Shown here piece by piece: positions 3,072 through 53,715 of a stretch of 53,715 bases of DNA. The notes under the pieces are model-generated. The model was not told where the DNA came from. It ran no database searches and saw nothing but the letters and a program-made list of their open reading frames with translations. How positions within the stretch are numbered: the first letter of the stretch is position 1; each line of letters begins with the position of its first letter. Made by a program: the position numbers and the translations under genes. Origin of the DNA: Thermoanaerobaculia bacterium (lineage in GTDB: Bacteria; Acidobacteriota; Thermoanaerobaculia; Multivoradales; UBA5704); assembly GCA_036497345.1 (NCBI GenBank), contig DASXJP010000663.1, positions 1-53,715 on the forward strand, given 5' to 3'.

Positions 3072-3895
3072 GCGAATCTCCTTTCTTCGAGGAGAGTGGG
3101 GGTGGAGACCGGAGGAGCCGCCCGGCGCCAGACATAGCGGGAGCCGGGCAGCAGGCGGTCGATCAGCGGCACCGCCGGCGCCAGGAAGAAGAGCGACAGC
3201 AGCAGGCCGTTGGGCCGGTAGAGCACGAAGTGGACGTACCCCGCGCCGAGGGCCACCAGCAGGGCAAACAGGACACGGCCGGCCCGCGAGTCGGGGGTGG
3301 TGCGGGGGTCGGAGATCATGAAGAAGGTAAAGATCAGGAACGCGCCGCTCTCGACCTGATGGAGGGGGATGGCCATGGGCTGCCCCAGCCAGAGGGCGCG
3401 CCCGCAGAGGACCGCCAGATAGAAGGCCAGGAAGGCGTAGGTGACGTCGCTGCGCGCCGCCCGGTTGACCACCAGGCCGCCCAGGCAGGCGATCAGGAAG
3501 GCGAAGAACGCCGCGCTCCCCCACTGGCCCGGGGAGACCCAGACGCCGCCGGTGGCGAGCATCACCGCCACGATGCCGAAGTTGGTGGGGTTGAAGACGT
3601 GCTTGCCGCGGACCCGGAGGACGAATTTGCCGGCGATGGTGACCACGGCGGCCAGCGCCGCCAGGGCCCAGGAATTGGTGCGCAGCAGCAGGCAGAGGGA
3701 GAGCCCCGAGATCAGGGCGCTCCGCGGGTCGAAGGCCGGCAGCCGCCAGAGTCGGGTACAGGCGTACTGGGTGAGCTGGGCCACCCCCAGCAGGAGGAGG
3801 GCGCGGCCCGCGGGGATCTCCAGGTCCAGGCGGGTCACGCCATAGACCAGCAGCGACGAGAGGATCAGGATCTGGTAGAGGCGGGGGTCTCTCAT
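3068..3895 (-). CDS. RnfD/NqrB-like polytopic membrane protein
   Basis: ATG 3895 preceded by GAGGAGGAGGAG. Multiple TM helices and an HVFNPTNFGIV motif typical of the NqrB/RnfD family. Coupled to the DUF2330 gene. Confidence 0.7.
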   Translation of the reverse strand: MRDPRLYQILILSSLLVYGVTRLDLEIPAGRALLLLGVAQLTQYACTRLWRLPAFDPRSALISGLSLCLLLRTNSWALAALAAVVTIAGKFVLRVRGKHVFNPTNFGIVAVMLATGGVWVSPGQWGSAAFFAFLIACLGGLVVNRAARSDVTYAFLAFYLAVLCGRALWLGQPMAIPLHQVESGAFLIFTFFMISDPRTTPDSRAGRVLFALLVALGAGYVHFVLYRPNGLLLSLFFLAPAVPLIDRLLPGSRYVWRRAAPPVSTPTLLEERRFA

Positions 3896-4024
3896 GGCGG
3901 TCTCCTCCTCCTCTTTGGACACCGCGGGTTTCGACCGGGAAACCGCTCGCCCCCAACGTTTGGGCTGTCTGCTCCGTAGTAAGATAGAGACGTATCGCAG
4001 ACTGGGAATAGAAAGGAAGCTTCA

Positions 4025-5269
4025 ATGCAGAAAGCAGTTGTCCTCTGTGGAGGTGTGCTCGCGCTGGGCCTCTCCGCTGCGGCCTGGGCCGGCCCCACGG
4101 CGCAGGGAGCGCCGTTCCACATCAGCTCTTGCACAACCTGCATCGAGCAGGTCCCGGCCGTGGCCGGCTCGGCGTCCGGCGCCTTCCTGACCATCTGGAA
4201 GGGGACGAGCCCCACCAATTCCAATGGGGTGAGCGGCCGGATGTTCTCCAGCACGGGCACCCCCATGGGCTCGGATTTCCTGGCCAACAAGGACCTGACA
4301 GAGGATCAGTACGACCCGGCGGTGGCCCGCGACGGGCAGGGGAGCTTCATCGTGGTCTGGTCGGAGGTCATCAACGGCAACAGCGAGATCAAGGGCCGGC
4401 GCTACGGACCGACCGGCGCGGCGCTGGGCGCCCCCTTCAAGGTCAACCAGGACCAGGCCGGGACGCCGACCATCCCCGCCGACTTCAACCCCGCGGTGGC
4501 GGTCCTGAAGGACGGCTTCATCGTGACCTGGATGAGCATCCTGCCCGCGGGCAACGGCTTCCCCGGATCCACGCCCCAGGTGCTGGCCCGCAAGCTGGGC
4601 CCGACCGGCACGCCGGTGGGGAATCAGGTCAAGATCAACACCGGCCTGGTCAACGGCGACCGCCCGGACGTCTGCGTGGACACCTCGGGAAAGCCGGTGG
4701 TGGTCTGGACGAGCGTGGACGGCTTCCCTCTTTTCGAGGCCAATCACAAGGGGGTCTCGCTACGCCAGCTCACGCCCGCGGGCGTTCCTGTGGGCACGGC
4801 CGAGACGGTGGTCGCCGCCCCCAAGGCGGGCTCGGTCCATCCGGCGGTCTCCTGCGGCGCCGGCAGCACCTTCGTGGTGGTCTGGCACAGCGACCAGTCG
4901 CCGGCGGTGGACCAGACCGACATCCTCGGGCAACGCTTCAGCCGCCTGGGGCGCGCCGTCGGGGCCACCTTCCGGATCAACACGACGGTGGCGAACCAGG
5001 ACCGCAACCCGTCGATCGCCCATGACGCCAAGGGGAATTTCGTGGTGGTCTGGCAGGCGTACCTCGCGGGCACCAAGGTGAGCATCCTGGGCCGCCGCTT
5101 CAACGGCTCGGCCGCCGCGCTCAGCCCGGAATTCGAAGTGTTCGCCGGCACCGACAACGCGCTGATCCCCGGCAATCCCGACGTCGCCATGACCGGGACC
5201 ACGGGAAATTTCGTGGTCGTCTGGCAGGACGGCTCGCAGAGCATCTCCGGCCGGCGCTTCACTCCGTAG
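4025..5269 (+). CDS. Secreted repeat protein, probable 7-bladed beta-propeller
   Basis: SD AAAGGAAG, then ATG. Signal peptide MQKAVVLCGGVLALGLSAAAWA. About seven repeats of 55-60 aa share the pattern G-x-F-[IV]-V-[VT]-W ... [IL]-x-G-R-[RQ]-[FY] ... G-x-x-F-x-[VI]-N ... P-x-V-A. Confidence 0.75.
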   Translation: MQKAVVLCGGVLALGLSAAAWAGPTAQGAPFHISSCTTCIEQVPAVAGSASGAFLTIWKGTSPTNSNGVSGRMFSSTGTPMGSDFLANKDLTEDQYDPAVARDGQGSFIVVWSEVINGNSEIKGRRYGPTGAALGAPFKVNQDQAGTPTIPADFNPAVAVLKDGFIVTWMSILPAGNGFPGSTPQVLARKLGPTGTPVGNQVKINTGLVNGDRPDVCVDTSGKPVVVWTSVDGFPLFEANHKGVSLRQLTPAGVPVGTAETVVAAPKAGSVHPAVSCGAGSTFVVVWHSDQSPAVDQTDILGQRFSRLGRAVGATFRINTTVANQDRNPSIAHDAKGNFVVVWQAYLAGTKVSILGRRFNGSAAALSPEFEVFAGTDNALIPGNPDVAMTGTTGNFVVVWQDGSQSISGRRFTP

Positions 5270-8600: not shown

Positions 8601-8676
<76 letters not shown>

Positions 8677-37910: not shown

Positions 37911-38010
37911 GGAAGCGCTCGGGGGCTGGTGCCTCCTGCGGTCTTCAAAACCGTTGTCCGGCGCCGGTTGCGGCGTCGGGGGTGGGTTCGATTCCCATGC
38001 GCTTCCGCCA
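37911..38010 (+). tRNA. selC: tRNA-Sec (anticodon UCA)
   Basis: 8-bp acceptor GGAAGCGC/GCGCTTCC, 6-bp D stem GGGGGC/GCCTCC with 4-nt loop TGGT, anticodon loop CTTCAAA, long variable arm, T arm GTGGG-TTCGATT-CCCAT, discriminator G and CCA. The ends are identical to E. coli selC (GGAAG...CTTCCGCCA). TAGAAT -10-like box at 37897-37902. Confidence 0.88.
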
Positions 38011-38153: not shown

Positions 38154-39203
38154 TCAGCGATGGCTGGCGGGGAGCGCTTCCCAGAGCCACTGTCCCACCC
38201 GCCGGGCGGAAACGTAGCTCACCCAGGCGGCCGCACCGAGCAGTTGGGTGTCCGTGGGATACCGGGCGCGATAGGCGGCGACAACGGCGCCGTCCACCCG
38301 GTAGGAGGCGAGCGCGGTGAGAAGGGCGAAGCGGCCCGCGGCCTTCTCTTCTGGGGGAACCCCGGTGAGCGCGGTGTCGAGCTCTTTCGGGTCTAGACCC
38401 CCGAGGCCCGGATCGGTGCCATCCCAGGCTTCGAGCCGTTCCAACACCCGCTCCCGTACCGACTCGTGTAGCGCGTTCTGGACCGCGGCGTCCACTGCTG
38501 CGGCATAACGGGCGAAGGCGCCGGCCACGCTGGGATTCCCCCGCGCCCAGGGGAGGTCGGCCGGCAGATCGGCGGGCTCCAGGAGGGCCAGCGACGCGCC
38601 CGGCACGCGACGGACCGATACGAGCGCCGCAAAACGGCCGGCAGCGAGCTTCCTGATCCACCCCTTGGCCCAATGAGCCACCGAGGGCAGGGGATAGGGC
38701 GATTCAGGCAGGAAGACGTGGGCCATACGGTTGATGTAGTGGAACGCCATCGCGGTACCGATCATCTCGCTGGTATCCGCGGCCGGGAACGGCGGCTGTG
38801 ACAGCGCAGCGGCTCCGGGAGAACGGTGCGCCGCTCCCCAGGCCACGACCTCGCGGAGCCTCTCGTCGCGCAACGCGCCGGGTTTCCTGCCCGCGAGCGC
38901 CTGGGCGGCGTCCCGCTCCCCGGCCGCTTCCAGCATGAGGGTATGGGCGTCAATGCAATAAGGGCAGCGGTTGAGGCGCGAGATCTCCGCCGCAAGGGCC
39001 TCCTTGACCGGTCTCGCGACTTGACCGGTTACGAGTGTCTCCCGCAGCACGCACCAGGCACCGGCTAGCAGCCGCGGCACCGGAGAGTGGAGAGGGATCG
39101 GCGGCAGCAACCCGAACTCCCGCCGCGCCTGGGAGTAGACTTCAGCCACCAGCCCGGTGGCCGCTGCGGGCGAGACCGGCTGGAGGTATCGGATCTCTGG
39201 CAT
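38154..39203 (-). CDS. Carboxymuconolactone decarboxylase (AhpD-like) family protein
   Basis: ATG 39203 (MPEIRYLQPV...). AhpD-like core with LNRCPYCIDAHT. Confidence 0.75.
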   Translation of the reverse strand: MPEIRYLQPVSPAAATGLVAEVYSQARREFGLLPPIPLHSPVPRLLAGAWCVLRETLVTGQVARPVKEALAAEISRLNRCPYCIDAHTLMLEAAGERDAAQALAGRKPGALRDERLREVVAWGAAHRSPGAAALSQPPFPAADTSEMIGTAMAFHYINRMAHVFLPESPYPLPSVAHWAKGWIRKLAAGRFAALVSVRRVPGASLALLEPADLPADLPWARGNPSVAGAFARYAAAVDAAVQNALHESVRERVLERLEAWDGTDPGLGGLDPKELDTALTGVPPEEKAAGRFALLTALASYRVDGAVVAAYRARYPTDTQLLGAAAWVSYVSARRVGQWLWEALPASHR

Positions 39204-39321
39204 GTGGCGGCTGGAAGTATATCTCCGCTTCGGAACTATGTCTCGAACAGGAGTCTCCCCGGAACCTGCCTGCGACATCCATGGCAAGCGCGGGGCGAGA
39301 ATCGGAGCTGCTTAGGGCTCG

Positions 39322-39470
39322 TCATGGGCGAGCCCTCGGATGGTGGCAGAGCTTCTCCACGATCTGGGGTACAGCCTCCAAGCCAACAGCAAGACCTTGG
39401 AAGGAGCCAGCCATCCGGATCGCGACGCCCAATTCGAGCATATCAATCGTCAGGCACAAGCGGCCGTTCA
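39322..39470 (+). pseudogene. Relic of an ISAzo13-family (DDE) transposase gene, about 45 codons
   Basis: VAELLHDLGYSLQANSKTLEGASHPDRDAQFEHIN matches the conserved ...LGYSLQANRKT.EG..HPDR.AQF..IN block I recall for ISAzo13-type transposases. A stop lies immediately upstream and similarity is lost downstream. Confidence 0.5.
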
Positions 39471-39614
39471 GCCGCACGATCGGATCCAATATGGCCAATA
39501 TGCCATAGATCAATTCCTCGACCAGCTCGAATTTGCCTCTCGAAACGCCGTCGCAGGGGGTACCTAAGCTGCGAAAGAAGAGTATATTCATTTCTCTTGC
39601 TAAAGGGAGGTTGC

Positions 39615-40349
39615 ATGAGACTTCTCAAAGACTACGTGAACGAGCCCCTTGACTGGCGTCGTTACCAGGTAGCAATGTACATCTTTGGAATCGTGCTCTT
39701 CTCGCTCGGCGCCAAAGGCTTCATCGATGCGAAGCTCGGCACCGACCCTCTGGACGTGCTCGTCATCGGCATGAACCGGCACTTGGGCGTGGGGCTCGGC
39801 ATCTGCTCCTCGCTCGTCGCCGTCACCTTTCTCGTGTGGTGGATGCTCTGGAACCGCAAGCTTCCACCGCTCACCCCGTTCGTCAGCACGGCGGCCGTCG
39901 GCTTCCTGCTCGACTTCTGGAACGCGATCAGGCTTGAGCAATACACGATCGGCGCGGTGCCCGTTCAAATCGTCCAGATTTTCGGTGCGACGGTCAATCT
40001 CTGGGCCATCGTCCTCGACGTCATCTCGCTCCTCACCTGCGCCTATGCTTCGTCCATCATTATCATGAGCGGTATCGGTATCCGCATCATGGACCTCGTC
40101 GCCATCACCATGATCGAGCGGTGGGGCTGGGCGTTTTTCCGCGCCAAGATGGTCCTTGAGATCAGCCTCTTCATGTCGGGCTGGCTCCTTGGCGGACCGA
40201 TGGGTATTACCACAGTGCTATTTCTCTTCCTGGTCGGCCCGTTCATTCAGCCTTTCATGTGGATGAATGCCACGTACCTCAACCTTCCGAACCACGGCAT
40301 CCACTCGGCTCACCACCGGATCCGTGGTGGCCTGAGGCAGCCCGGCTGA
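39615..40349 (+). CDS. Polytopic membrane protein (YczE/YitT-like, tentative), low-GC gene
   Basis: SD AAAGGGAGG, then ATG 39615. About 6-7 TM helices. GC is about 52% against about 70% in the surroundings. Confidence 0.65.
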   Translation: MRLLKDYVNEPLDWRRYQVAMYIFGIVLFSLGAKGFIDAKLGTDPLDVLVIGMNRHLGVGLGICSSLVAVTFLVWWMLWNRKLPPLTPFVSTAAVGFLLDFWNAIRLEQYTIGAVPVQIVQIFGATVNLWAIVLDVISLLTCAYASSIIIMSGIGIRIMDLVAITMIERWGWAFFRAKMVLEISLFMSGWLLGGPMGITTVLFLFLVGPFIQPFMWMNATYLNLPNHGIHSAHHRIRGGLRQPG

Positions 40350-40377
40350 GCGCGTTGCAACGCTCTTCGTTGGCTTG

Positions 40378-40551
40378 CTAGCCGGTCAACGAGAGCACCT
40401 CGCACGCCCCGCCGACCCCCACCGGCTCCGCCCCCGCCCGCACGCGCACCAGGGCGGTGCCGTGGGCGTAGGCGGCGAGGTCGTGGGAGCCTTTGAAGAA
40501 GTAGGGGGTGACCAGCTCGTTTCCCGCCCTCTTTTCTCTCCGGATCAACTG
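40378..40551 (-). pseudogene. Divergent 3'-terminal fragment of a moeA gene (last ~57 codons plus stop)
   Basis: The minus strand translates to ...LIRREKRAGNELVTPYFFKGSHDLAAYAHGTALVRVRAGAEPVGVGGACEVLSLTG*, compared with the MoeA C-terminus ...AEIEARNGELHVTPYFFKGSHDLAAYAHGTALARVRAGSARTEAGGRCEVLVVAG*. No upstream MoeA domains are present. Confidence 0.75.
40449..40506. repeat. Left copy of a 58-bp perfect direct repeat (att-like)
   Basis: CCAGGGCGGTGCCGTGGGCGTAGGCGGCGAGGTCGTGGGAGCCTTTGAAGAAGTAGGG, identical to 47111-47168. Confidence 0.9.
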
Positions 40552-40620
40552 AAGCGCCGGGACGGCAATGCCCTGTTCAGCTTTGCGGAACCGTTCCGCC
40601 GGCTCATCCTCACCGCCTCC

Positions 40621-41343
40621 TCAATCCATCTTTTCGTACACGGAGACGTGCCGCTGGCTGTTGGGACCGATCTCGGCTCGGTTCCAGTCGGCCCAGCGGT
40701 GCCGGAGCCGGAGGCCGGCGAGGCGCGCCATCAGGTCGAGCTCCGCGGGCCAGGCGTAGCGGACCTCGACCGGGTAGAGACGGATCTCCTGATTCCGGAT
40801 GACCACGTGCTGGCTCTTCAGCCGCTGGCGCACAGGGTCGTGCTCCGACACCTTCAGGCCGATCCGCTCGTCCGTCACCGCGGTGACCTGCAATCCGCCG
40901 GTGAAGTTGGCGCTCTGGGGAACGAAGGCTTCGAGCACGAAGACTCCGTCCGCGGTGAGATGCGCGGCCACGTTCTGGAAACAGCGCACCTGCTCGTCCT
41001 GGGTGGGGAGCGCGAAGAAGGTGTTGTAGGCCACGAAGATCAGGGAGAGCTCGCCCTGCACCGCCACATCGGCGAAGTTGCCCAGGGTGACCGGAATGGC
41101 CTCCCCTCCGGGCTTGACGCGCAAGCGAGCGACCATGGCCGGCGAGAGATCGATACCCTGCAGGTCGATCCCCCGAGCCGCCAGGGGGAGCGCGAGCAGC
41201 CCCGAGCCGATTCCCAGCTCCAGGACCCGGCCGGCCCCGGCCAGCTCCGCCAGGAGATCGACGGCGGCTTCCTCGCAGGAGCCGAACCACTGGTCGTAGA
41301 CCTCGGCGCAGGCCTCGTTGTAGGTCGGATCTTCGGTGTTCAT
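40621..41343 (-). CDS. Class I SAM-dependent methyltransferase
   Basis: ATG 41343. Motif I VLELGIGSGLLALPLA, post-I IDLSPAMV, and LTADGVFVLE. Confidence 0.8.
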   Translation of the reverse strand: MNTEDPTYNEACAEVYDQWFGSCEEAAVDLLAELAGAGRVLELGIGSGLLALPLAARGIDLQGIDLSPAMVARLRVKPGGEAIPVTLGNFADVAVQGELSLIFVAYNTFFALPTQDEQVRCFQNVAAHLTADGVFVLEAFVPQSANFTGGLQVTAVTDERIGLKVSEHDPVRQRLKSQHVVIRNQEIRLYPVEVRYAWPAELDLMARLAGLRLRHRWADWNRAEIGPNSQRHVSVYEKMD

Positions 41344-41369: not shown

Positions 41370-43445
41370 TCACGCTCCCAGCGGCAGCTCGCCCTCGGCG
41401 CTCAGGCGCTCCAGCCGGGGCGCCGTGCCCGGGGCCCAGCGCTTCGCCTGGTGCGTGACCCGGTAGGCGAGCGGACCGCCGTCGGGGCGGTCGCTGCGTT
41501 CGAGCGGGCGGGGGATGCAGACGAATTCGACTTGCAGATCCTCGGCGCTCGCCCGCACCACGGCATAGCCGTGGCCGCCGAGATCCGTGAACGCGAGGTG
41601 CGGCGCGACCTCCGGGTTGGCGGCGGCCAGCGCCTGTCGGCGGTCTCCCGTCTTCCGCAGGGCGAGGCTGGCGCGGACGCCGTGCCGGAGCGACAGGTTG
41701 ATCGCTGGCTCCGCCGGTCCCCCGGACGCGGGATCGTGAAGGTAGAGGGCGCGCCACGGCTGGTCTTTTTTCAGATTGTGCTGCGCGGCCTCGAACAGGG
41801 TGGGCGCCGAGATCGAGCCGGTGATGAATTCCACGCCGACCGGCTTGTAGGGTTGCGGCGGCAGCGACCGCGAGAGGGCCCCGGCCGCGAAGGCGTGCCG
41901 GTCCCCGGCGATGGTGGCGAAGCCGGCGATCCGCTCGCGCTCGACCAGATCCAGGATCTCCGCGCGCTCCGAGCGATAGCCGCTCCAGTCGTCGCCGCCG
42001 GCCAGCGCGAAGCCGTCCGCCGGCCAGCGCGGTCCGCCCTCGGCGGGCAGGTTCTGGAGGTCGGTCCGCCAGTCGAGCATGCCCACCGAATTCCCCCACA
42101 GCTTCCAGGTCGCGGCCGAGGCGCGCAGCCGCTCCAGAAACCATTTCTTCTGCTCGCCGCCGAGCATCGAGGCGGGCGGCGCGCCGCGGCGGGGATTGGG
42201 CACGTCGGCGCCGTTGAAGCGGATCGCCGCCGGCGGCTTGCCCCCTCCGTACGCGCGCCCGGCGTCCAGGACCTCGACGGCGTCCAGTGGAAAGAAATAC
42301 GGGAACGCCTTGGACTGGAACGCCGCGGCCCCGGGCTGGTCGACCACCGGCTCGGAGCGGAACGAGCGGTTGTCGGTGAGGATCAGCTCGACGTTGCGGC
42401 CCCAGCGCAGGGTGCGGAAGATCTTGAGGCTTTCGATCGCCGCGAGGTTCCCCTTCTCCAGGCCCAGGCCGTGCTCGTCGAGATCGCGGAGCGGCGCGTC
42501 GGCCACGGCGGGAGCCACGAAGCGGTCGCGCCGCGTGGAGCCCGGCTGGGCCACCCGCGCCGGCTGATACTCGAACCAGGCCTGGTTGGCCGCGGTCTTG
42601 CGCGTCTGCGCGGGCCGGACGCCGCCGAAATTCTGCTGGCTCTGCCACCCCTTCCACGAGAACTCGTGGTTGTCCCACACGCAGACGAAAGGCCAGCGCG
42701 CGCGGGCGTCCTGGAGGTCGGGATCCGCGAGATAGCCGCGGTAGAGCACGCGGTAGTCCTCGACCGTCGCCGGCACGTGGAAATCGGTGATCTTCTCGCC
42801 GCGCGGATAGCGGACGACGTCGCGCAGGCGCCGGTCGTACATCCCCTGCGGCCGGTCCTCCGGATACCAGACGACCTCGTAGACGAAGTCCCCGAGGTGG
42901 AGCACGAAGCCCAGGCGCTCGCCTTCGGGCTGCTTCTCGTCCTCGAAGATCATGCGGCGGTAGGCGTTGCAGGCGCCCTGGGTCACGTTCTGGCAGCTCA
43001 CGAAGGCGAAGCGGACGGGGCGGCCGTCGCCCGCGGCGGGAGCTGTGAGCGTGCGGCCGACGCGGCTGCCGAAGCCGTGCTCGTCGGTGAAGCGATACCA
43101 GTAGACGCGGCGCGGCTTGAGGCCGGCCGCGAGCACCCGGCAGGTCCAGTCCGCCTCGGCGGAGAGAGAGACCTCTGCCCGCGCGGCGACGCGATGGAAG
43201 CCCGGGTCCTCCGCGACCTCCACGTGAAGGGTCTGCGCGGCCTGGCCGTCCGGCCCCGGAGGGCGGCGCGTCCAGAGCAGGACGCTGTCCGGCTGCGGAT
43301 CGCCCGAGGCCACGCCCTGGGGATAGAGATCCCGCCGCTCGGTCCAGGAGACCTGCGCGGCGCGAGAGAGGAGCGAGGGCCAGGCGAGCGCGGCGCCGAG
43401 GGCCGCCGCGCTCTGGATCGCTTGCCGCCGGGTGATGGGAGCCAT
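41370..43445 (-). CDS. phoD: PhoD-family alkaline phosphatase/phosphodiesterase, Tat-exported
   Basis: MAPITRRQAIQSAAALGAALA twin-arginine signal. GVASGDP, VLHLGDFVYE and VWDNHEF. Confidence 0.85.
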   Translation of the reverse strand: MAPITRRQAIQSAAALGAALAWPSLLSRAAQVSWTERRDLYPQGVASGDPQPDSVLLWTRRPPGPDGQAAQTLHVEVAEDPGFHRVAARAEVSLSAEADWTCRVLAAGLKPRRVYWYRFTDEHGFGSRVGRTLTAPAAGDGRPVRFAFVSCQNVTQGACNAYRRMIFEDEKQPEGERLGFVLHLGDFVYEVVWYPEDRPQGMYDRRLRDVVRYPRGEKITDFHVPATVEDYRVLYRGYLADPDLQDARARWPFVCVWDNHEFSWKGWQSQQNFGGVRPAQTRKTAANQAWFEYQPARVAQPGSTRRDRFVAPAVADAPLRDLDEHGLGLEKGNLAAIESLKIFRTLRWGRNVELILTDNRSFRSEPVVDQPGAAAFQSKAFPYFFPLDAVEVLDAGRAYGGGKPPAAIRFNGADVPNPRRGAPPASMLGGEQKKWFLERLRASAATWKLWGNSVGMLDWRTDLQNLPAEGGPRWPADGFALAGGDDWSGYRSERAEILDLVERERIAGFATIAGDRHAFAAGALSRSLPPQPYKPVGVEFITGSISAPTLFEAAQHNLKKDQPWRALYLHDPASGGPAEPAINLSLRHGVRASLALRKTGDRRQALAAANPEVAPHLAFTDLGGHGYAVVRASAEDLQVEFVCIPRPLERSDRPDGGPLAYRVTHQAKRWAPGTAPRLERLSAEGELPLGA

Positions 43446-43683
43446 GGCGCCGATTCTACCCGACGCCAGGCGGCGGGAAGCTTTTCAGTCCCCCCGTACA
43501 GGATGTAACGCTTGGCGGGTCCGCCGCGCCTGAGAAGGTATCCGAGCACAGAGGAGAGCTGGATCGAGAAAGAAAACCATGAATCCTCAACCTGTCAGAC
43601 CGCGGGGGCGGTCGACGAACATCCAGAGGCAAGGGAAGCCTGGGCGTCTCCGATGGAGGCCCGCAAATCCCGGGAGGCTTGAG

Positions 43684-45096
43684 ATGGCATCGCATGCCAA
43701 ACCGCGGGAGCGCTCCGCGAACATTTTCATCAACTACCGCCGCGAGGACAGCGCGGGCCACTCAGGGAGGCTGTTCGATGCCCTGAGCAGCCATTTCTCC
43801 GGCCGGCTGTTCATGGACGTCGACACCCTGGAGCCTGGCGTCGATTTCGTCGAGGCGATCGAGCAGGCGGTGGGCTCGTGCGAGGTGTTGCTCGTCGTCA
43901 TCGGGCGCGAGTGGCTGACCATCGAAGACAAGACCGGGCGCCGGCGCCTCGACGATCCCGGAGACTTCGTCCGTCTGGAGGTCGAGTCCGCCCTGGCGCG
44001 CCGGATCCGGGTGATTCCGGTCCTGGTTCAGGACGCGCCCATGCCCGGCGCCGAAGAGCTGCCGGCCTCGCTCGCCCGGCTGGCGCGACGCAACGCCATC
44101 GAGCTCAGCGACGCCCGCTGGGCCTACGACGTTGACCGCCTGGCCCACACGATCCAGGAGATCCTGGCGGAAAGCCCGGCGTTGGAGAAGGCCACGCCGC
44201 CTGCCGCGGTCGCGGCGGGGGTGGAGGCAAAGGCCACGGGGTCGCGGGTGTGGCTGCTCTCTCTTGCCGCTCTCGCGCTGGTGGCGACCGTCGCGCTGGG
44301 GTCTTGGGCATGGATAGGGCGGACCCCGACCCCGAGCGGCAAGGTCGATCCCTCACAGACCCCGGCGGCCAACCTGGGGGCCGTCACGGTCCCCGCGGGC
44401 GGCCTGGCTACCGGGGCTCCCGCGAGCGGCGGGCCCGCCGCGAATCCGGCTGGCGACGTGAGCAGCGGGAGCACCGCCGCCAAGGCTCCCCGCGCCGTCG
44501 AGACCGCGCCCAGGATTGAGCCATCCGCCCCGCGCCGCGCCGCCGACAGGCCCTCCGAGGCTCCGACCCGGGTGCTCCCCGTCTCGGTCCCGATCTCCGA
44601 ACGGGCCACGGTTCCCTCCAGCGACGAGCCCTCCGTGACCTCCAGAGCGGCCGACCCACGGGGCTCGTCGGTCCCCGCATCGAGCTTGCAGCCGGTGCGC
44701 GTCACGATCGTGTCGCCGCAGAACGGGGATACGGTCGGCTCGGACGTCATGGTGCAAGGCTCCGTCTTCGGGCTCGGCGACCGGCAGATCTTCCTGTGCA
44801 TCCGGCAGAGCAACGGCATGATCTATCCCCGGGGGGAGGTGTTCCCGAAAGCCGACGGCCAGTGGTCTATCAAGCTGAGGAGCTCCAGGGAAAAGACCTT
44901 CGAGGTCCTGGTGGTGGCGTCCGCCAGCAAGGAAGCGGATCAGGCCTTGAGGGATCAGCGGAGCCGGGATGAGGGCCTGGCCGCCCTCCCCGCGGGAGCC
45001 TCCATCAGCAGCGGCGTCCTGACGCTGAAAAAGCAGGGGAGGATCGGCAGCCTGTTCAATCCAAAACGGTCGGATTCGATCGACCATCCCAGGTGA
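43684..45096 (+). CDS. TIR-domain protein with a single TM helix and a C-terminal beta-sandwich-like domain
   Basis: SD GGGAGG, then ATG 43684. IFINYRREDSAGHSGRLFDAL...DVDTLEPGVDF...VLLVVIGREW...RLEVESAL...VIPVLV is TIR_2-like. TM helix VWLLSLAALALVATVALGSWAWI, an ~130-aa P/A/S-rich linker and a ~110-aa C-terminal domain (VRVTIVSPQNGDTVGSDVMVQGSV...). Confidence 0.8.
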   Translation: MASHAKPRERSANIFINYRREDSAGHSGRLFDALSSHFSGRLFMDVDTLEPGVDFVEAIEQAVGSCEVLLVVIGREWLTIEDKTGRRRLDDPGDFVRLEVESALARRIRVIPVLVQDAPMPGAEELPASLARLARRNAIELSDARWAYDVDRLAHTIQEILAESPALEKATPPAAVAAGVEAKATGSRVWLLSLAALALVATVALGSWAWIGRTPTPSGKVDPSQTPAANLGAVTVPAGGLATGAPASGGPAANPAGDVSSGSTAAKAPRAVETAPRIEPSAPRRAADRPSEAPTRVLPVSVPISERATVPSSDEPSVTSRAADPRGSSVPASSLQPVRVTIVSPQNGDTVGSDVMVQGSVFGLGDRQIFLCIRQSNGMIYPRGEVFPKADGQWSIKLRSSREKTFEVLVVASASKEADQALRDQRSRDEGLAALPAGASISSGVLTLKKQGRIGSLFNPKRSDSIDHPR

Positions 45097-45211
45097 ATGC
45101 CACGGGCTTCTTCGCCCTCCGGGCTCCTCGAAGCGGGGGGCCCGCACCTTCTTCTTTGAGGAGCCGCCACCGGCGGCGGCTTCCCATGAACCGTCCTCAA
45201 AGGAGACTCGT

Positions 45212-45559
45212 ATGAAGCTGAGATCCATGGTCCTGGTCCTTGCCTTGCTGCTGATCGCCTCCCTGGCGAGCGCCGCCCAGACCCAGACCGCCACGCCGGC
45301 GGACCCGGCGGCCGCGAATCTGGCGGCGATCTTCGCCGCTCCGGCGCCTCCGGATGGGGGGACCGCGAAGCTTCCGTCGTTCGAGCCCACTCCCAGCGAA
45401 AAGGCCCTCACCTGCGGAAGCTGCAGCGACGCGCCCTGTGTGGGAGCGCAGGTCGGGACCGTCTGCAAATTCCAGAACGGCCAGACCTACACGTGCCAGC
45501 ACGCCTACGTCATCTGCACCTTCAGGGACTGCGAGTGCTGGACCGGGCCGCTGCCGTAG
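45212..45559 (+). CDS. Small secreted Cys-rich protein (8 Cys in the last 50 aa)
   Basis: SD AAAGGAG, then ATG. Signal peptide MKLRSMVLVLALLLIASLASA. The C-terminus is CGSCSDAPCVGAQVGTVCKFQNGQTYTCQHAYVICTFRDCECW. Confidence 0.6.
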   Translation: MKLRSMVLVLALLLIASLASAAQTQTATPADPAAANLAAIFAAPAPPDGGTAKLPSFEPTPSEKALTCGSCSDAPCVGAQVGTVCKFQNGQTYTCQHAYVICTFRDCECWTGPLP

Positions 45560-45629
45560 ACCAGGGCTTCGTCCATCCAGAAGTGAGAGACCTCGGAGGG
45601 CCGCGTGCGCTCCGAGGCTCCCGGTCGAA

Positions 45630-47024
45630 TCACCGCTCCTCCGTGAGGCCCAAGACTCGTTTCAATCGGAACCAGAGATTCCTTGCCTTCCAGAAGCGGC
45701 TCGCTTCCATCCCCCGGACGCGGCTCGTGAGCGCGGCAATCTCCTCGGCGCTCTTATTCAGGCGACTCTCGTACGCGCTCTTCTGCCGCTCGAGTTGCTC
45801 GCCGTGGAGCGCTTCTTGCCGGCTCAGTTGTCCGCGCAACATCACGGTGTCCAGTTGAGCGGACCGCAGGCAGGCCCATGCTACAGGTCCCGAATACAGG
45901 CTCAGATCTTCCCCGCGGCACGAAATACCCCATATGGATAAATGAGCTGACTCCGGGTCCGCGGTCTCGGGAAGGTCCACTGTAAGCTGCCAACCGACCA
46001 CTTCCGCGGGATCATCCGTGAAAATTGAGCTCAGAGAGGATCGGGGCTGAAGATCCCGGCACGATGCCGTAAGCTCGCCGTCAATGCTGATCCGTACCTC
46101 CTGTGGAGGCTGGCCGGTCACCCGGTCGGCAATCCAGCCGCTGAGGCGAAGGCTTCTCTTTCCGCCCCAGGAGCAGTGCTCCAGGAATCCGTCGGCGTCA
46201 CGCTTCAGCTGCAGGCCTGAAAAATCTGTAGCCCCCGTCTTGGCAGGCTCCTCCTTGATCACCACGTACAGGTCTTGGAAGCTGGTGAGGCCCCGGGGAA
46301 TCCGCAAGATCGGATACGCACCGATCGCCTCCTCGACCGCGGAGCGCGCGAAGCTTTCCGTGACCCACGCGCTGCCGTAATCACAGGTATCCAGCGAGCT
46401 GCTCTCGCTGATTTCTCGAAAGATGATTCCCTCTTGCGGCTCAGCCGGTTCTTTATACAGGGACATGTCATGCACGCTGAACAGCAAAATACCATCGGCA
46501 TTCAAGAGCGATCCCAAGCGCCGGAGCCATCCGATGAATCTGGATTTGGGCAGGTGTGTAAAAAGAGACGATACCAGAATCGCGTCGAACCGTTGATCGC
46601 AGACGAATTCCTCCGGCTTGACGGTCGACACGATGCCGTGGACGCCGAGCTCGCGTTCCTGGAAGGCGACGCCCTCGGCGTAGATGTCCGACACCCAGAC
46701 CCGATCCTCAGGTATATCCGCGACGATGTGCCGGGTCACCCGGCCGTAACCGCTGGCAAAGTCCAGAATCGGCCCGCCCCAGGACAAGGAGCCAAACCGC
46801 CATGCGAGGATCTGCCGTTGCGTCGTCCAGATCCGGCGTCCTGAATCGAGATACATGGCCACCGCTTGCTCGAGATCGTGGCCTTGCGCATACTGAAAGA
46901 ACCGCAGCATCTCATCGGCCGCGCTGATATTGAAGCTGACGCCGCGCCAGAGGAGATCCCGGCAAAGCGCTTTGACGGTCAGACTGTCGGAGCCGTTGGA
47001 GTAGGCAAGGTTTTCTGTATTCAT
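45630..47024 (-). CDS. SAM-dependent methyltransferase with a C-terminal extension ending in a coiled coil; low-GC gene
   Basis: ILDFASGYGRVTRH (motif I), ILVSSLFTHLP and ADGILLFSVHD. The C-terminal ~230 aa are an extra domain plus heptad region. GC is about 50-55%. It starts 15 nt after the moeA stop. Confidence 0.75.
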   Translation of the reverse strand: MNTENLAYSNGSDSLTVKALCRDLLWRGVSFNISAADEMLRFFQYAQGHDLEQAVAMYLDSGRRIWTTQRQILAWRFGSLSWGGPILDFASGYGRVTRHIVADIPEDRVWVSDIYAEGVAFQERELGVHGIVSTVKPEEFVCDQRFDAILVSSLFTHLPKSRFIGWLRRLGSLLNADGILLFSVHDMSLYKEPAEPQEGIIFREISESSSLDTCDYGSAWVTESFARSAVEEAIGAYPILRIPRGLTSFQDLYVVIKEEPAKTGATDFSGLQLKRDADGFLEHCSWGGKRSLRLSGWIADRVTGQPPQEVRISIDGELTASCRDLQPRSSLSSIFTDDPAEVVGWQLTVDLPETADPESAHLSIWGISCRGEDLSLYSGPVAWACLRSAQLDTVMLRGQLSRQEALHGEQLERQKSAYESRLNKSAEEIAALTSRVRGMEASRFWKARNLWFRLKRVLGLTEER

Positions 47025-47039
47025 CGCGATTGCCGTCTC

Positions 47040-48239
47040 TCAGCCCGCCACCACCAGCACCTCGCACCGCCCCCCCGCCTCCGTCCGCGCCGACCCGGCG
47101 CGGACGCGCGCCAGGGCGGTGCCGTGGGCGTAGGCGGCGAGGTCGTGGGAGCCTTTGAAGAAGTAGGGCGTGACGTGGAGCTCGCCGTTCCGGGCCTCGA
47201 TCTCCGCCGGCAGGAAGCGGTCGCGGGAACCGGCGGCCGGCAGGGGAGAGGCCAGGGTGCCGGTGAGGGCGGGCCCCCACCAGGAATCCTCGAAGCCCAT
47301 CAGGCGGCGCAGGGCGGGGCGGACGAAGAGCCAGAAGCTCACCATCACCGAGGCGGGGTTCCCCGGCAGGCCGAAGACCAGGCCTCCGGGATGGACCGCG
47401 AAGACCACCGGCTTGCCCGGCTGGATCGCCACCGCGTCGAACACCATCTCGCAGCCGGCCGTGGCGAGCACGCCTTCAACCAGATCGAGCTCGCCCATGG
47501 AGACGCCGCCGCAGAGGAGGAGCACGTCGGACCGAAGGCCCCGATGGACGAGCTCGCGGAGGGGCCCCTCCTTGTCGGGCGCGATGCCCAGCGAGGTGAA
47601 GCGCATGCCGAGGGTGGCCCCCGCCGCGAGCAGGAAGTCGGTGTTGGAGTCGCGGAGCTGGCCGGGGGCGGGGACCGCCTCGGGGGGCACCACCTCGTCG
47701 CCGGTCGTCATCACGGCCACGGAGGGCCTGCGGTGGACCAGTGTCTCGCCATAGCCGTGGGTGGCGAGGAGGGCCAGGGCTCCGGGTGTCAGGATCGATC
47801 CCGATGGGAGCATCGGAGCGCCCGTCCTCAGGACCTCCCCCCGGCGGCGGATGTGCTCGCCCGGGGGCACCCCTTTATGGAAGGTCACCCGCTCCCGACC
47901 GCCGTCGGTCAGCTCGACCGGGATCACGCGGTCGGCGGCGGCCGGCACGGGGGCGCCGGTCATGATGCGGGCCACGGCGCCGGGGGGAATCGCGAAGCCG
48001 GGCCGGTCCCCCGCGAAGACGGTGCCGGCCACCGGCCGGGTCTCCTCGGGCTGGATCTCTCCGGCCAGGGCATAGCCGTCCATGGCCGAGACGTCCGCGG
48101 CGGGCACGTCCACGGTCGCGGCCAGGGGACGGGCCAGCACCCGGCCGGCCGCCTCCCGCCGTCCCACCATCTCTCCGTGGAGCGGGCGCACCCGCTCCGC
48201 GATCCGCCGCCAGGCCTCATCCGGGTGAATCAGGGCCAT
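47040..48239 (-). CDS. moeA: Molybdopterin molybdotransferase MoeA
   Basis: SAMDGYA, RRRGE, GGVSMGELD and GLPGNPAS motifs across 399 aa. Confidence 0.9.
   Translation of the reverse strand: MALIHPDEAWRRIAERVRPLHGEMVGRREAAGRVLARPLAATVDVPAADVSAMDGYALAGEIQPEETRPVAGTVFAGDRPGFAIPPGAVARIMTGAPVPAAADRVIPVELTDGGRERVTFHKGVPPGEHIRRRGEVLRTGAPMLPSGSILTPGALALLATHGYGETLVHRRPSVAVMTTGDEVVPPEAVPAPGQLRDSNTDFLLAAGATLGMRFTSLGIAPDKEGPLRELVHRGLRSDVLLLCGGVSMGELDLVEGVLATAGCEMVFDAVAIQPGKPVVFAVHPGGLVFGLPGNPASVMVSFWLFVRPALRRLMGFEDSWWGPALTGTLASPLPAAGSRDRFLPAEIEARNGELHVTPYFFKGSHDLAAYAHGTALARVRAGSARTEAGGRCEVLVVAG
47111..47168. repeat. Right copy of the 58-bp perfect direct repeat, inside the moeA 3' end
   Basis: Identical to 40449-40506. 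The flanks on both sides are similar but diverged. Confidence 0.9.
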
Positions 48240-52977: not shown

Positions 52978-53715
52978 ATGCCTCTGGCCTTTCACCCCGA
53001 CGAGACCAGCCCGCTGGTCGCCGCCCTGCTGAGCGATCTCGGGATCGCTCCGGGGACGCTCGATCTCGCTGTCGACGCCCGCGACGAGATGCTCGGCTTC
53101 CTGATCGACTCCTCCGAGGGGGATCGCGACCGGGCCCTCTTCGGCTACTTCCGCTCCGGCGCCAGCATCGCCGACTCCCTGGGCCAGGTGCTGCGCTGGC
53201 GCTTCGGCTCCCTGGAGAGGGTGGGGAAGCTCCTCGACTTCGCCAGCGGCTACGGGCGGGTGACCCGCTTCCTGGTGCGCGACGTGCCCCCCGAGCGCGT
53301 CTGGGTGGCGGACGTCTACGCGGACGGCGTCCGCTTCCAGGAGGAGCGGCTGGGGGTGCACGGGCTCGTCTCGACGATCCGGCCGGAGGATTTCGTCTGC
53401 GCCGAGCGCTTCGACGCCATTCTGGTCACCTCGCTTTTCACCCATCTTCCCGAGGAGCGCTTCGTGGCCTGGCTGCGGGTGCTCCTGGGGCTGCTCGCGC
53501 CGGGCGGGATGCTCGCCTTCAGCGCCCACTCCCCCGAGGTGCTGCCGGCGGGCGTCCCCAGCCCCGAGACGGGGATCCACTTTCAGGAGACCAGCGAGAG
53601 CGGCTCGCTGGCCAAGAGCGACTACGGCTCGACCTGGGTGACGGAGGACTTCGTCCGCTCGAGCCTCGACCGCGCGCTGGGCCCCGGCGCCGCTCTCCAC
53701 CGCATCGAGCGGGGG
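52978..53715 (+). CDS. SAM-dependent methyltransferase, 3'-truncated by the window end; paralogue of 45630-47024
   Basis: Not in the ORF track because no stop is reached. My manual translation from ATG 52978 gives MPLAFHPDETS...LLDFASGYGRVTRFLVRDVPPERVWVADVYADGVRFQEERLGVHGLVSTIRPEDFVCAERFDAILVTSLFTHLP..., about 60% identical by eye to the low-GC methyltransferase. Confidence 0.75.
   Translation, partial: MPLAFHPDETSPLVAALLSDLGIAPGTLDLAVDARDEMLGFLIDSSEGDRDRALFGYFRSGASIADSLGQVLRWRFGSLERVGKLLDFASGYGRVTRFLVRDVPPERVWVADVYADGVRFQEERLGVHGLVSTIRPEDFVCAERFDAILVTSLFTHLPEERFVAWLRVLLGLLAPGGMLAFSAHSPEVLPAGVPSPETGIHFQETSESGSLAKSDYGSTWVTEDFVRSSLDRALGPGAALHRIERG

Follow-up and report, generated by a model that had tools for sequence, protein, structure and literature searches.

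A bacterial TIR protein with a predicted receptor-like membrane architecture in a Thermoanaerobaculia genome

To our knowledge, the known bacterial TIR proteins (Thoeris ThsB, the CBASS/Pycsar effectors, SPARTA, Avs) are all cytoplasmic, sensing intracellular events or second messengers. The gene discussed here, which lies in a window of 53.7 kb (the whole stretch of DNA analysed) from a Thermoanaerobaculia bacterium, raises the question of whether a TIR domain can also be wired to a sensor outside the cell. A TIR domain joined to an extracytoplasmic sensor by a single transmembrane (TM) helix would indeed bring outside-in signalling into bacterial TIR biology.

The gene is complete (43684..45096, plus strand) and encodes 470 residues, with its stop codon at 45094-45096. 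Its ATG start at 43684 is preceded by a Shine-Dalgarno-like GGGAGG (43671..43676, plus strand, read from the sequence), which ends 7 nt ahead of the start codon, and the aligned orthologues begin at the equivalent Met. A scan for sigma-70 promoters returned no site. Downstream, between this gene and the next ORF, a consensus scan picked out a GC hairpin with a T-rich tail that resembles a terminator (45133..45145, plus strand); the scan gave 4 sites against 1.1 expected, and its evidence is weak. On the other side, phoD (41370-43445, minus strand, PhoD 6.5e-63) diverges from it, as an earlier note on this DNA had described. The same note had proposed a cytosolic TIR domain, one TM helix, a spacer and an Ig-like domain, and the four elements are found in this order where it had placed them. 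A homologue search with the protein gave 1390 matches, about 60 of them full length among the matches listed; the full-length orthologues are 44-74% identical by BLASTP and 48-82% identical in a MAFFT alignment, and those with a named source are all labelled Thermoanaerobaculia. This depth of homologues, together with the confident folds described below, rules out a chance ORF or an annotation artefact. Conservation is very uneven along the chain, the mean pairwise identity between orthologues being 82% for the TIR domain, 19% for the linker and 59% for the Ig-like domain. Judged from its sequence, the product is very probably a receptor-like single-pass membrane protein, with the TIR domain inside and the Ig-like domain outside.

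The TIR domain and its candidate catalytic glutamate

The predicted cytoplasmic TIR domain covers residues 10-165 (43711..44178, plus strand). Pfam TIR_2 (PF13676) matches residues 14-152 over profile positions 1-120 of 122, scoring 44 bits where the cutoff is 28 (E 3.7e-11), and the AF2 model, with pLDDT mostly above 90, has the flavodoxin-like alpha/beta fold of TIR domains. The closest structure retrieved by Foldseek is the SARM1 TIR domain (9ugj_B, E 9e-9, TMt 0.85, rmsd 2.8), followed by AbTir, PdTIR and BtpA; plant TIRs are matched too, and the TIRs of Toll-like receptors (TLRs) rank below that of SARM1. The profile and structure searches that the earlier note had called for thus support both the fold and the TIR_2 assignment. 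A profile search likewise returned SARM1/TIR-1 as the top PDB sequence match, and the profile alignment displays three motifs in common with SARM1, namely F-I-x-Y-R-R, F-x-D-V-x-x-L-E-x-G-x-x-F and D-[FW]-V-x-x-E-x-x-x-A-L. By these sequence and model comparisons, the domain is of the enzymatic SARM1 type, closer to it than to TLR TIRs. The relationship to SARM1/TIR-1 is limited to this domain: identity is about 21%, the ARM and SAM domains are missing from the protein, and the TIR domain is here N-terminal and predicted to be tethered to a membrane together with an extracytoplasmic domain.

In the same alignment, Glu99 (codon GAG, 43978..43980, plus strand), within DFVRLEVESAL, falls on Glu642 of SARM1, within DWVHKEIVTAL, which is where TIR NADases have the catalytic Glu of their alphaC region. 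The Glu in the RLEVESAL motif had been singled out beforehand as the candidate for this position, and it proves invariant in 36 orthologues as well as in 75 cross-phylum relatives (from Acidobacteriota, Actinomycetota, Pseudomonadota, Planctomycetota, Nitrospira and other groups); the nearby Glu101 is not invariant. R19, G52, W77 and D94 are invariant along with E99 across these 75 relatives, and Y18, D45 and F55, invariant in the 36 orthologues, are kept in at least 90% of them. A conserved Glu does not by itself imply NADase activity, since it is also frequent in the TIRs of TLR1/2/6/10, for which no activity has been reported (PMC7075850). Enzymatic competence of the present TIR domain as an NADase can be predicted with moderate confidence.

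The TIR domain is also 77-86% identical to those of paralogues carrying other C-termini. Such conservation, like the 82% found between orthologues, is atypical of fast-evolving defence genes, and could instead reflect a constrained protein–protein interface.

Membrane topology and exchangeable domains

The single TM helix (residues 187-211; 44242..44316, plus strand) appears as a helix in the AF2 model, and is the sole window outside the TIR core with a Kyte-Doolittle value above 1.6 (maximum 2.15). This only strongly hydrophobic stretch is hydrophobic in all orthologues, and no signal peptide is present at the N-terminus. It is followed by a disordered linker of 126 residues (212-337; 44317..44694, plus strand; pLDDT below 50), presumed to span the periplasm, with a composition of 18% A, 17% P and 14% S that agrees with the P/A/S-rich spacer of about 130 residues initially noticed. 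This linker is hypervariable among orthologues, both in sequence and in length (67-190 residues).

The C-terminal ectodomain (residues 338-452; 44695..45039, plus strand) is modelled as an Ig-like beta-sandwich with a pLDDT of about 95, which bears out the Ig-like domain of about 110 residues suggested at first. Its Foldseek matches in the PDB are generic (Ig V-set, CBM, GlgE-N, TM about 0.5), and Pfam yields a sub-threshold Big_7 alone (E 0.05), so that no specific function of the ectodomain is supported. An exhaustive profile search was needed to follow this domain across genomes, a single-sequence word-index search having returned 6 gene fragments only. Among the 100 representatives obtained, the domain lies C-terminal to a TM helix, which is found behind protein kinase domains (Pkinase; P0142, P0167, P0182, P0203), behind AAA_22 ATPases and, in P0215, behind a CAP12/Pycsar-type TIR. 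The sharing of this ectodomain with Ser/Thr kinases suggests that one common envelope ligand may be read by several signalling outputs.

The TIR half also combines with other domains. TM segments follow the TIR domain in 67 of 76 complete relatives, and the C-termini beyond them include PASTA, TonB_C, PD40, FKBP_C and FGE-sulfatase domains, the first three of which are obligately extracytoplasmic. A GTDB scan places these relatives in at least eight phylum-level groups; the architecture reaches well beyond this locus and is in fact widespread. Output and sensor domains are thus each exchangeable on the same TM scaffold, which is a feature of one-component receptors. This two-way modularity argues for a receptor-like design with the N-terminus in and the C-terminus out. 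The charges flanking the TM helix (+0.8 versus +0.9) leave the positive-inside rule indecisive, and the topology consequently rests on domain logic; from the sequence, the N-in/C-out orientation is strongly suggested.

The comparison with Toll-like receptors made in the earlier note holds in one respect and fails in another. A sensor outside and a TIR domain inside are supported by the extracytoplasmic C-termini of the relatives and by the Ig-like domain found behind kinase TM helices. Single-pass TLR and IL-1 receptors indeed combine a binding ectodomain outside with a TIR domain inside, as predicted here, and the IL-1R family uses Ig-like ectodomains. The polarity is nevertheless reversed: with its N-terminal TIR, the present protein is of type II, in contrast to the type I order (ectodomain, TM helix, C-terminal TIR) of TLRs and IL-1Rs. 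It also differs from TLRs by its single Ig-like domain in place of LRRs and by its SARM1-type TIR, and from both receptor families by the lack of adaptor proteins, with no evidence for common descent of the architecture. The resemblance is best described as analogous, in its in/out logic only.

Two bacterial systems offer a comparable geometry. In PknB/PASTA kinases, an N-terminal cytoplasmic catalytic domain is also followed by one TM helix and a C-terminal extracytoplasmic sensor; PASTA domains occur on some TIR-TM relatives, and the present family of Ig-like ectodomains on Pkinase-TM proteins. The output is here a TIR domain and not a kinase, with no phosphorylation chemistry. TonB likewise combines a single TM anchor with a proline-rich linker spanning the periplasm, and a TonB_C domain ends close paralogues (TIR 77-86% identical). 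The present protein ends instead in an Ig-like domain, no ExbB or ExbD gene is found near its gene, and TonB has no cytoplasmic TIR.

Full-text literature searches returned no description of bacterial TIR-TM-ectodomain proteins, an absence which is not a proof; these proteins apparently form a widespread bacterial class that is undescribed. The most recent systematic TIR survey, on type VII Thoeris, discarded stand-alone TIR proteins (10.64898/2025.12.03.692087), which leaves the class experimentally unexplored. The class looks large, judging from the 1390 matches to one query and the spread over at least eight phylum-level groups.

A candidate stand-alone sensor–effector and its alternatives

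The earlier note had set this locus apart from canonical Thoeris, and this stands. No SIR2 or SIR2-SLOG, Macro or Macro-TM, SLATT, caspase-like or other known Thoeris effector gene is present in the window or in the 6-8 kb surrounding each orthologue examined, and no effector gene of any kind was recognised in the window or the orthologue loci. Curated models reach only the first 60 or so residues of the TIR domain, far below their cutoffs: NCBIfam ThcB4 attains 31.5 bits where 220 would be needed, with about 60 residues matched, and PADLOC ThsB covers residues 11-72 only (E 9e-7, below cutoff). Membership in Thoeris or CBASS is rejected on this basis. Across the orthologue loci examined, no partner gene recurs beside the TIR gene except moeA. 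Random gene neighbourhoods in homologues had been named beforehand as evidence against the TIR reading. The orthologue neighbourhoods are indeed variable, which argues for a stand-alone one-gene unit and does not weaken the TIR assignment.

Starting from the domain identities and their order, the conservation pattern, the two-way modularity and the stand-alone organisation, the following scheme can be proposed. The SARM1-type TIR domain would sit on the cytoplasmic face of the inner membrane, connected by the TM helix and the flexible spacer of 126 residues to an Ig-like domain with a binding role in the periplasm or envelope. The trigger would act at this ectodomain, for instance through ligand binding, through clustering, or through a contact with the envelope being made or broken; it would alter the lateral association of the receptors and bring the cytoplasmic TIRs into head-to-tail oligomers, which known TIR enzymes need in order to form their active site. 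Glu99 would then cleave NAD+, leading to its depletion and/or to a cADPR-type nucleotide, with growth arrest or a downstream response as the outcome. This reading, a stand-alone single-pass N-in/C-out inner-membrane sensor–effector in which the ectodomain triggers NAD+ cleavage by Glu99, seems to us to have an even chance of being correct. What triggers it and with what physiological effect can only be weakly surmised, defence or envelope surveillance being the leading candidates.

Extended to the whole class, the proposal becomes more tentative: one-component surface receptors of many phyla, bearing Ig-like, PASTA, TonB_C or beta-propeller ectodomains and activated by clustering, might signal through a cytoplasmic TIR NADase by producing cADPR or depleting NAD+, a generalisation that we find rather doubtful. 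If it were true, TIR receptors would pick up disturbances of the envelope, adsorbing phages or extracellular ligands outside the cell. They would be the functional equivalent, in prokaryotes, of TLR/IL-1R signalling, able to sense a threat before nucleic acid entry, and a testable analogue of its logic built on a SARM1-like enzymatic TIR lineage.

A first alternative to the self-sufficient sensor–effector would make the protein the sensor half of a Thoeris-like system, in which the membrane TIR produces a cADPR-type nucleotide for an unlinked SLATT or other effector instead of depleting NAD+ on its own. A DUF4231/SLATT gene abuts or overlaps the TIR-TM gene in 10 loci of distant relatives (TIRs 47-61% identical), and this two-gene layout, seen in subfamily relatives from Actinomycetota and Acidobacteriaceae, matches type VII Thoeris, where a TIR protein (ThsB) making cADPR is paired with a SLATT protein (ThsH) (10.64898/2025.12.03.692087). 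For the sensor–effector reading as well, this pairing speaks for an enzymatic or signalling role in the subfamily. SARM1, the closest structural relative of the present TIR domain, likewise produces cADPR (same reference). By contrast, no SLATT gene stands beside the gene studied here or beside its orthologues, and in their products a TM helix and an ectodomain follow the TIR domain. Thoeris genes normally form operons, and the absence of any known Thoeris effector from the window and from the surroundings of the orthologues examined makes this alternative unlikely.

The second alternative does without catalysis: the TIR domain would serve as a homotypic module joining paralogous envelope-spanning proteins with TonB_C, TPR or Ig-like C-termini, in the manner of animal TIR adaptors. 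The extreme conservation of the TIR domain, among orthologues and in paralogues with other C-termini, would suit such a scaffold, as would the coexistence of several TIR paralogues in single MAGs (four or more in CAWJGT01, tandem pairs in L019) and the fact that the Glu does not always imply activity (PMC7075850). A scaffold would hardly account for an invariant Glu at the catalytic position and a whole SARM1 active-site motif set kept across distant phyla, nor for relatives in operons with nucleotide-responsive SLATT effectors, and it appears quite unlikely.

The last and least probable alternative, a tethered pro-toxin, would have the anchor keep an auto-active TIR NADase dispersed until linker proteolysis and intramembrane cleavage free it to oligomerise and deplete NAD+; the long, disordered and presumably protease-accessible linker (predicted periplasmic) and the precedent of Dictyostelium TirC, a TM-tethered TIR NADase unleashed as a toxin by removal of its helix (PMC13142454), are outweighed by the absence of a recurrent protease gene beside the orthologues and by a structured ectodomain whose conservation (59% identity) points to a role in binding and not simply to a site of cleavage. 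TirC, similar in holding a TIR NADase (here a predicted one) at the membrane by a single helix (PMC13142454), is eukaryotic; its helix is N-terminal, it has no ectodomain, and its TIR derives from TIR-STING.

The moeA hotspot and the neighbouring peptide

The TIR gene had been described as part of an insertion flanked by moeA sequences, and the repeat is real. The intact moeA gene (47040..48239, minus strand; Pfam MoeA_N, MoCF_biosynth and MoeA_C) has its 3' end (47042-47174, minus strand) duplicated as a remnant copy at 40380..40512 (minus strand, 69% amino acid identity to the MoeA C-terminus). These direct repeats of 133 nt share 83% identity, match perfectly over a core of 58 nt and, with a spacing of 6662, enclose 6.66 kb including the TIR gene. 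No integrase gene lies between them in the ORF list or the Pfam scan. The TIR gene is nevertheless not a cargo specific to this insertion, since it stands beside the moeA 3' end without any duplication in 7 other orthologue loci (L003-L008), each from another genome. The two genes are convergent, separated by gaps of 10-77 bp in L003, L006 and L008 and by inserts of 1.2-4.4 kb in L004, L005 and L007; in L001 and L002, the TIR gene lies elsewhere, away from moeA. The moeA 3' end is thus a variable-gene hotspot of which the TIR gene is a frequent resident. In other genomes, this hotspot holds PADLOC candidate PDC-S01 ATPases, an REase-like protein and an integrase, the latter in L086, a cargo that weakly associates the TIR gene with defence. 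Also within the 6.66 kb lies a methyltransferase ORF (40621-41343, minus strand). A shadow-ORF query from its region gave an 86% match in L008, which reflects DNA-level similarity only.

A secreted peptide of 115 residues with 8 Cys (45212..45559, plus strand) starts 115 nt downstream of the TIR gene, at the position initially reported. Its 68 homologues (58-88% identity), all from Thermoanaerobaculia where the source is named, indicate by sequence that it is a real gene family. The survey of its co-occurrence with the TIR architecture, suggested in the earlier note, found no association: the peptide is absent from all other TIR loci fetched, and three loci (L086, L087, L088) carry it without a TIR gene. 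This lack of co-occurrence in the loci fetched leads us to reject it as a cognate ligand or partner. In L005, an unrelated secreted Cys-rich ORF of 88 residues occupies the same position, which may be a coincidence or another instance of hotspot cargo.

Anatomy and TIR subtype of the protein

The frame in the ORF list spans 505 codons (43579–45096), but the start at 43684, chosen in the earlier note, is the right one: GGGAGG at 43671–43676 precedes it and the equivalent Met begins all orthologues. In the resulting 470-aa product, residues 14–152 match TIR_2 in Pfam (44 bits, above the cutoff of 28; E 3.7e-11), and a Kyte–Doolittle scan detects a single strongly hydrophobic stretch, with its centre at residues 187–211. 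The AlphaFold2 model, with 36 homologues as input, comprises a confident TIR fold (pLDDT mostly >90), a helix at 187–211, a disordered segment at 214–334 (pLDDT <50) and a confident β-sandwich at 339–450 (pLDDT about 95, and 89 when modelled by itself). The anatomy initially read from the sequence, a TIR domain, one TM helix, a linker and an Ig-like β-sandwich, is therefore right in every element.

Searches returned 1390 homologues at E ≤ 1e-3. Among the matches listed, all those with a named source belong to Thermoanaerobaculia (Acidobacteriota), and full-length orthologues share 44–74% BLASTP identity. Mean pairwise identity over 36 orthologues is 82% in the TIR region, 50% in the TM region, 19% in the linker (67–190 aa long) and 59% in the Ig-like domain. 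Paralogues retain the TIR domain (77–86% identical) and the TM helix, with TonB_C or TPR at the C-terminus instead; several copies occur within single MAGs, some of them in tandem.

When compared with PDB sequences, the family profile retrieves only the SARM1/TIR-1 TIR domains, at marginal E values (0.08–0.2) and with an alignment covering the whole domain. The top Foldseek match of the model is also the SARM1 TIR (9ugj_B; E 9e-9, TM 0.85, rmsd 2.8 Å), with SPARTA, AbTir, PdTIR, BtpA, plant TIRs and TLR TIRs ranked below. The Pfam and structure searches both confirm the TIR identity. In the alignment with SARM1, FINYRRED pairs with FISYRRNS, FMDVDTLEPGVDF with FIDVEKLEAG-KF, and DFVRLEVESAL with DWVHKEIVTAL; Glu99 (codon 43978–43980) therefore occupies the position of the catalytic Glu642 of SARM1, as had been anticipated. 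This residue is invariant in 36/36 orthologues and across 75 relatives from many phyla, being one of only eight invariant or nearly invariant (≥90%) columns; the adjacent Glu101 is not invariant. The same Glu is also common in the TIRs of TLR1/2/6/10, which have no reported NADase activity (TIR divergence survey, PMC7075850). A Glu at the catalytic position is needed for activity and is insufficient as evidence of it. NAD+ cleavage by this TIR domain is predicted with moderate confidence.

A modular membrane-anchored TIR class

Querying the GTDB species genomes with the TIR domain gave 80 loci. TIR identity is 74–90% inside Thermoanaerobaculia and 47–61% beyond, in Actinomycetes, Burkholderiales and other Betaproteobacteria, Alphaproteobacteria, Planctomycetota, Acidobacteriaceae, Vicinamibacterales, Gemmatimonadales, Nitrospira and Anaerolineales. 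Hydrophobic TM-like segments follow the N-terminal TIR in 67 of the 76 complete proteins (one segment in 57, several in 10), and TIR_2 is present in all 75 of them that were scanned with Pfam. The C-terminal domains of these 75 proteins include TonB_C (5), PASTA (3), PD40 (2), FGE-sulfatase (2), as well as FKBP_C, 3-keto-disaccharide hydrolase, WD40, Kelch and TPR. The class is more general than the earlier note supposed. PASTA, TonB_C and PD40 are extracytoplasmic domains, and their presence at the relatives' C-termini strongly argues for a topology with the TIR inside and the C-terminus outside. No account of bacterial TIR–TM–ectodomain proteins turned up in the literature searches, an absence there being no proof of absence.

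The Foldseek neighbours of the ectodomain are generic Ig-like/CBM folds only, and its Pfam match, Big_7, is sub-threshold. An exhaustive HMM search with the ectodomain profile gave 100 representative proteins, in which this domain sits C-terminal to a TM helix while the N-terminal parts vary: Ser/Thr protein kinases (for example P0142, with Pkinase at 13–259, TM at about 295 and the domain at 427–540), AAA_22 ATPases, short membrane anchors and secreted aspartyl proteases. Another representative, P0215 (424 aa), has a CAP12/Pycsar-type TIR (PF10137), a TM segment, then the same Ig-like ectodomain family; its TIR family is separate and unrelated, and the same layout was put together independently. 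Because the TIR–TM part and the ectodomain each occur with other partners, both halves are independently swappable across the TM helix, a pattern that marks one-component transmembrane signalling proteins, PASTA kinases among them. Judging from its distribution, the ectodomain appears to be a shared sensor module.

The best-supported reading, to which we give about an even chance, is a stand-alone transmembrane sensor-effector. An event at the ectodomain would alter receptor clustering, leading to assembly of the cytoplasmic TIR domains, which would then cleave NAD+; both the trigger and the outcome for the cell's physiology are matters of speculation. In 10 distant relatives' loci (L026, L032, L045, L048, L049, L051, L052, L056, L069, L085), a same-strand TIR–TM gene abuts or overlaps a 2-TM DUF4231/SLATT gene. 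This pair matches, in a membrane-anchored version, that of type VII Thoeris (TIR plus SLATT), whose TIRs make canonical cADPR upon phage infection (Yirmiya et al., bioRxiv 10.64898/2025.12.03.692087). This configuration speaks in favour of the subfamily acting enzymatically and producing a nucleotide. In contrast to type VII Thoeris, neither the window nor the orthologue loci contain a SLATT gene; stand-alone TIR proteins were dropped from the survey in that preprint (bioRxiv 10.64898/2025.12.03.692087). That the protein generates a signal for an unlinked effector seems rather unlikely. The unusually high TIR conservation would suit a non-enzymatic scaffold, which we consider unlikely enough to rank after the unlinked effector, and a pro-toxin freed by a protease is quite improbable.

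TIR–TM genes stand in tandem, as pairs in L019, L068, L069 and L074 and as a triple in L043. The two products of the L069 and L074 pairs differ in form, one having a single TM-like segment and the other 5–6 TM segments, which suggests hetero-oligomeric TIR partners. Upstream of the full-length orthologue in L005, a divergent 107-aa TIR_2 fragment (1709–2032, −) represents a truncated second TIR gene.

Genomic surroundings: the moeA 3' end and the Cys-rich peptide

The earlier note took random neighbourhoods in homologues to speak against its reading; orthologue surroundings do vary, phoD is not conserved beside them, and moeA is the sole gene in common. This variability favours a gene that forms a unit of its own and does not count against the TIR reading. 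The TIR gene is convergent with the moeA 3' end in L003, L006 and L008 (gaps of 10–77 bp), separated from it by inserts of 1.2–4.4 kb in L007, L004 and L005 and of 1.95 kb in the window, and located elsewhere in L001 and L002. Insert content varies by genome: a Cys-rich peptide and a methyltransferase-like gene in the window, PADLOC candidate PDC-S01 (AAA_14/DUF4143) ATPases in L004 (12483–13649) and L005 (6040–7491). The moeA 3' site of L086, which lacks the TIR gene, carries a tyrosine integrase, an REase-like DUF4365 protein and a Cys-rich peptide; genes of the PDC-S01 ATPase/DUF4365/tyrosine integrase set lie there at 426–1742 and 3162–4253.

In the window, the moeA 3' end is duplicated as a 133-nt direct repeat (40380–40512 and 47042–47174; 83% identical, 58-nt perfect core, 6662 nt apart), confined to this locus among those examined. 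The pair looks like an att-type or Campbell-type duplication, with no integrase between the two copies. In our reading, the moeA 3' end is a recombination/integration hotspot of defence-island character, with the TIR gene as a frequent resident. The moeA-flanked insertion is real as far as the repeat goes; the claim that the TIR gene is cargo of this one insertion does not stand, orthologues adjoining moeA in other loci that lack the repeat.

The left copy forms a remnant ORF of 56 codons, whose product shares 69% identity with the C-terminus of MoeA. Segments 39001–41000 and 45001–47000, which flank the phoD–TIR pair, have a G+C of 0.60–0.645 against about 0.70 in most of the window, consistent with separately acquired DNA on either side.

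The Cys-rich peptides (window 45212–45559, +; L086 6001–6348; L087 922–1269 and 1810–2157; L088 6001–6345) are secreted and 113–118 aa long; a signal peptide is followed by a spacer rich in A and P and, at the C-terminus, by a block of some 45 aa containing 8 Cys. Their 68 homologues, of which the source-named ones are all from Thermoanaerobaculia, make up a genuine family specific to this class. Their genes are in some cases in tandem and three times at the moeA hotspot. The proposed partnership with the TIR gene does not survive the co-occurrence survey, the two never being found together among the other loci examined; a terminator-like hairpin lies between them in the window. The finding of the membrane-anchored TIR protein itself is real; it is the context-specific claims, island cargo and peptide partner, that fail. 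An unrelated 88-aa ORF (L005 4004–4270, +) with a signal peptide and a C-terminus rich in Cys takes up the same position directly 3' of the TIR orthologue in L005, which may be coincidence or a recurring kind of hotspot cargo.

In the 464-aa product of the other insert gene of the window (45630–47024, −), a SAM-methyltransferase domain (Methyltransf_12/23) lies at the N-terminus and the C-terminal half of about 270 aa is without a domain; PADLOC gives a weak mad2 match (E 2.6e-4), and a 51% identical paralogue at 52984–53715 runs past the window end. A tRNA-SeC gene (anticodon TCA; 37911–38010, +) is located to the left of the moeA remnant at a distance of about 2.4 kb, and a tRNA-Ala gene at 8601–8676.
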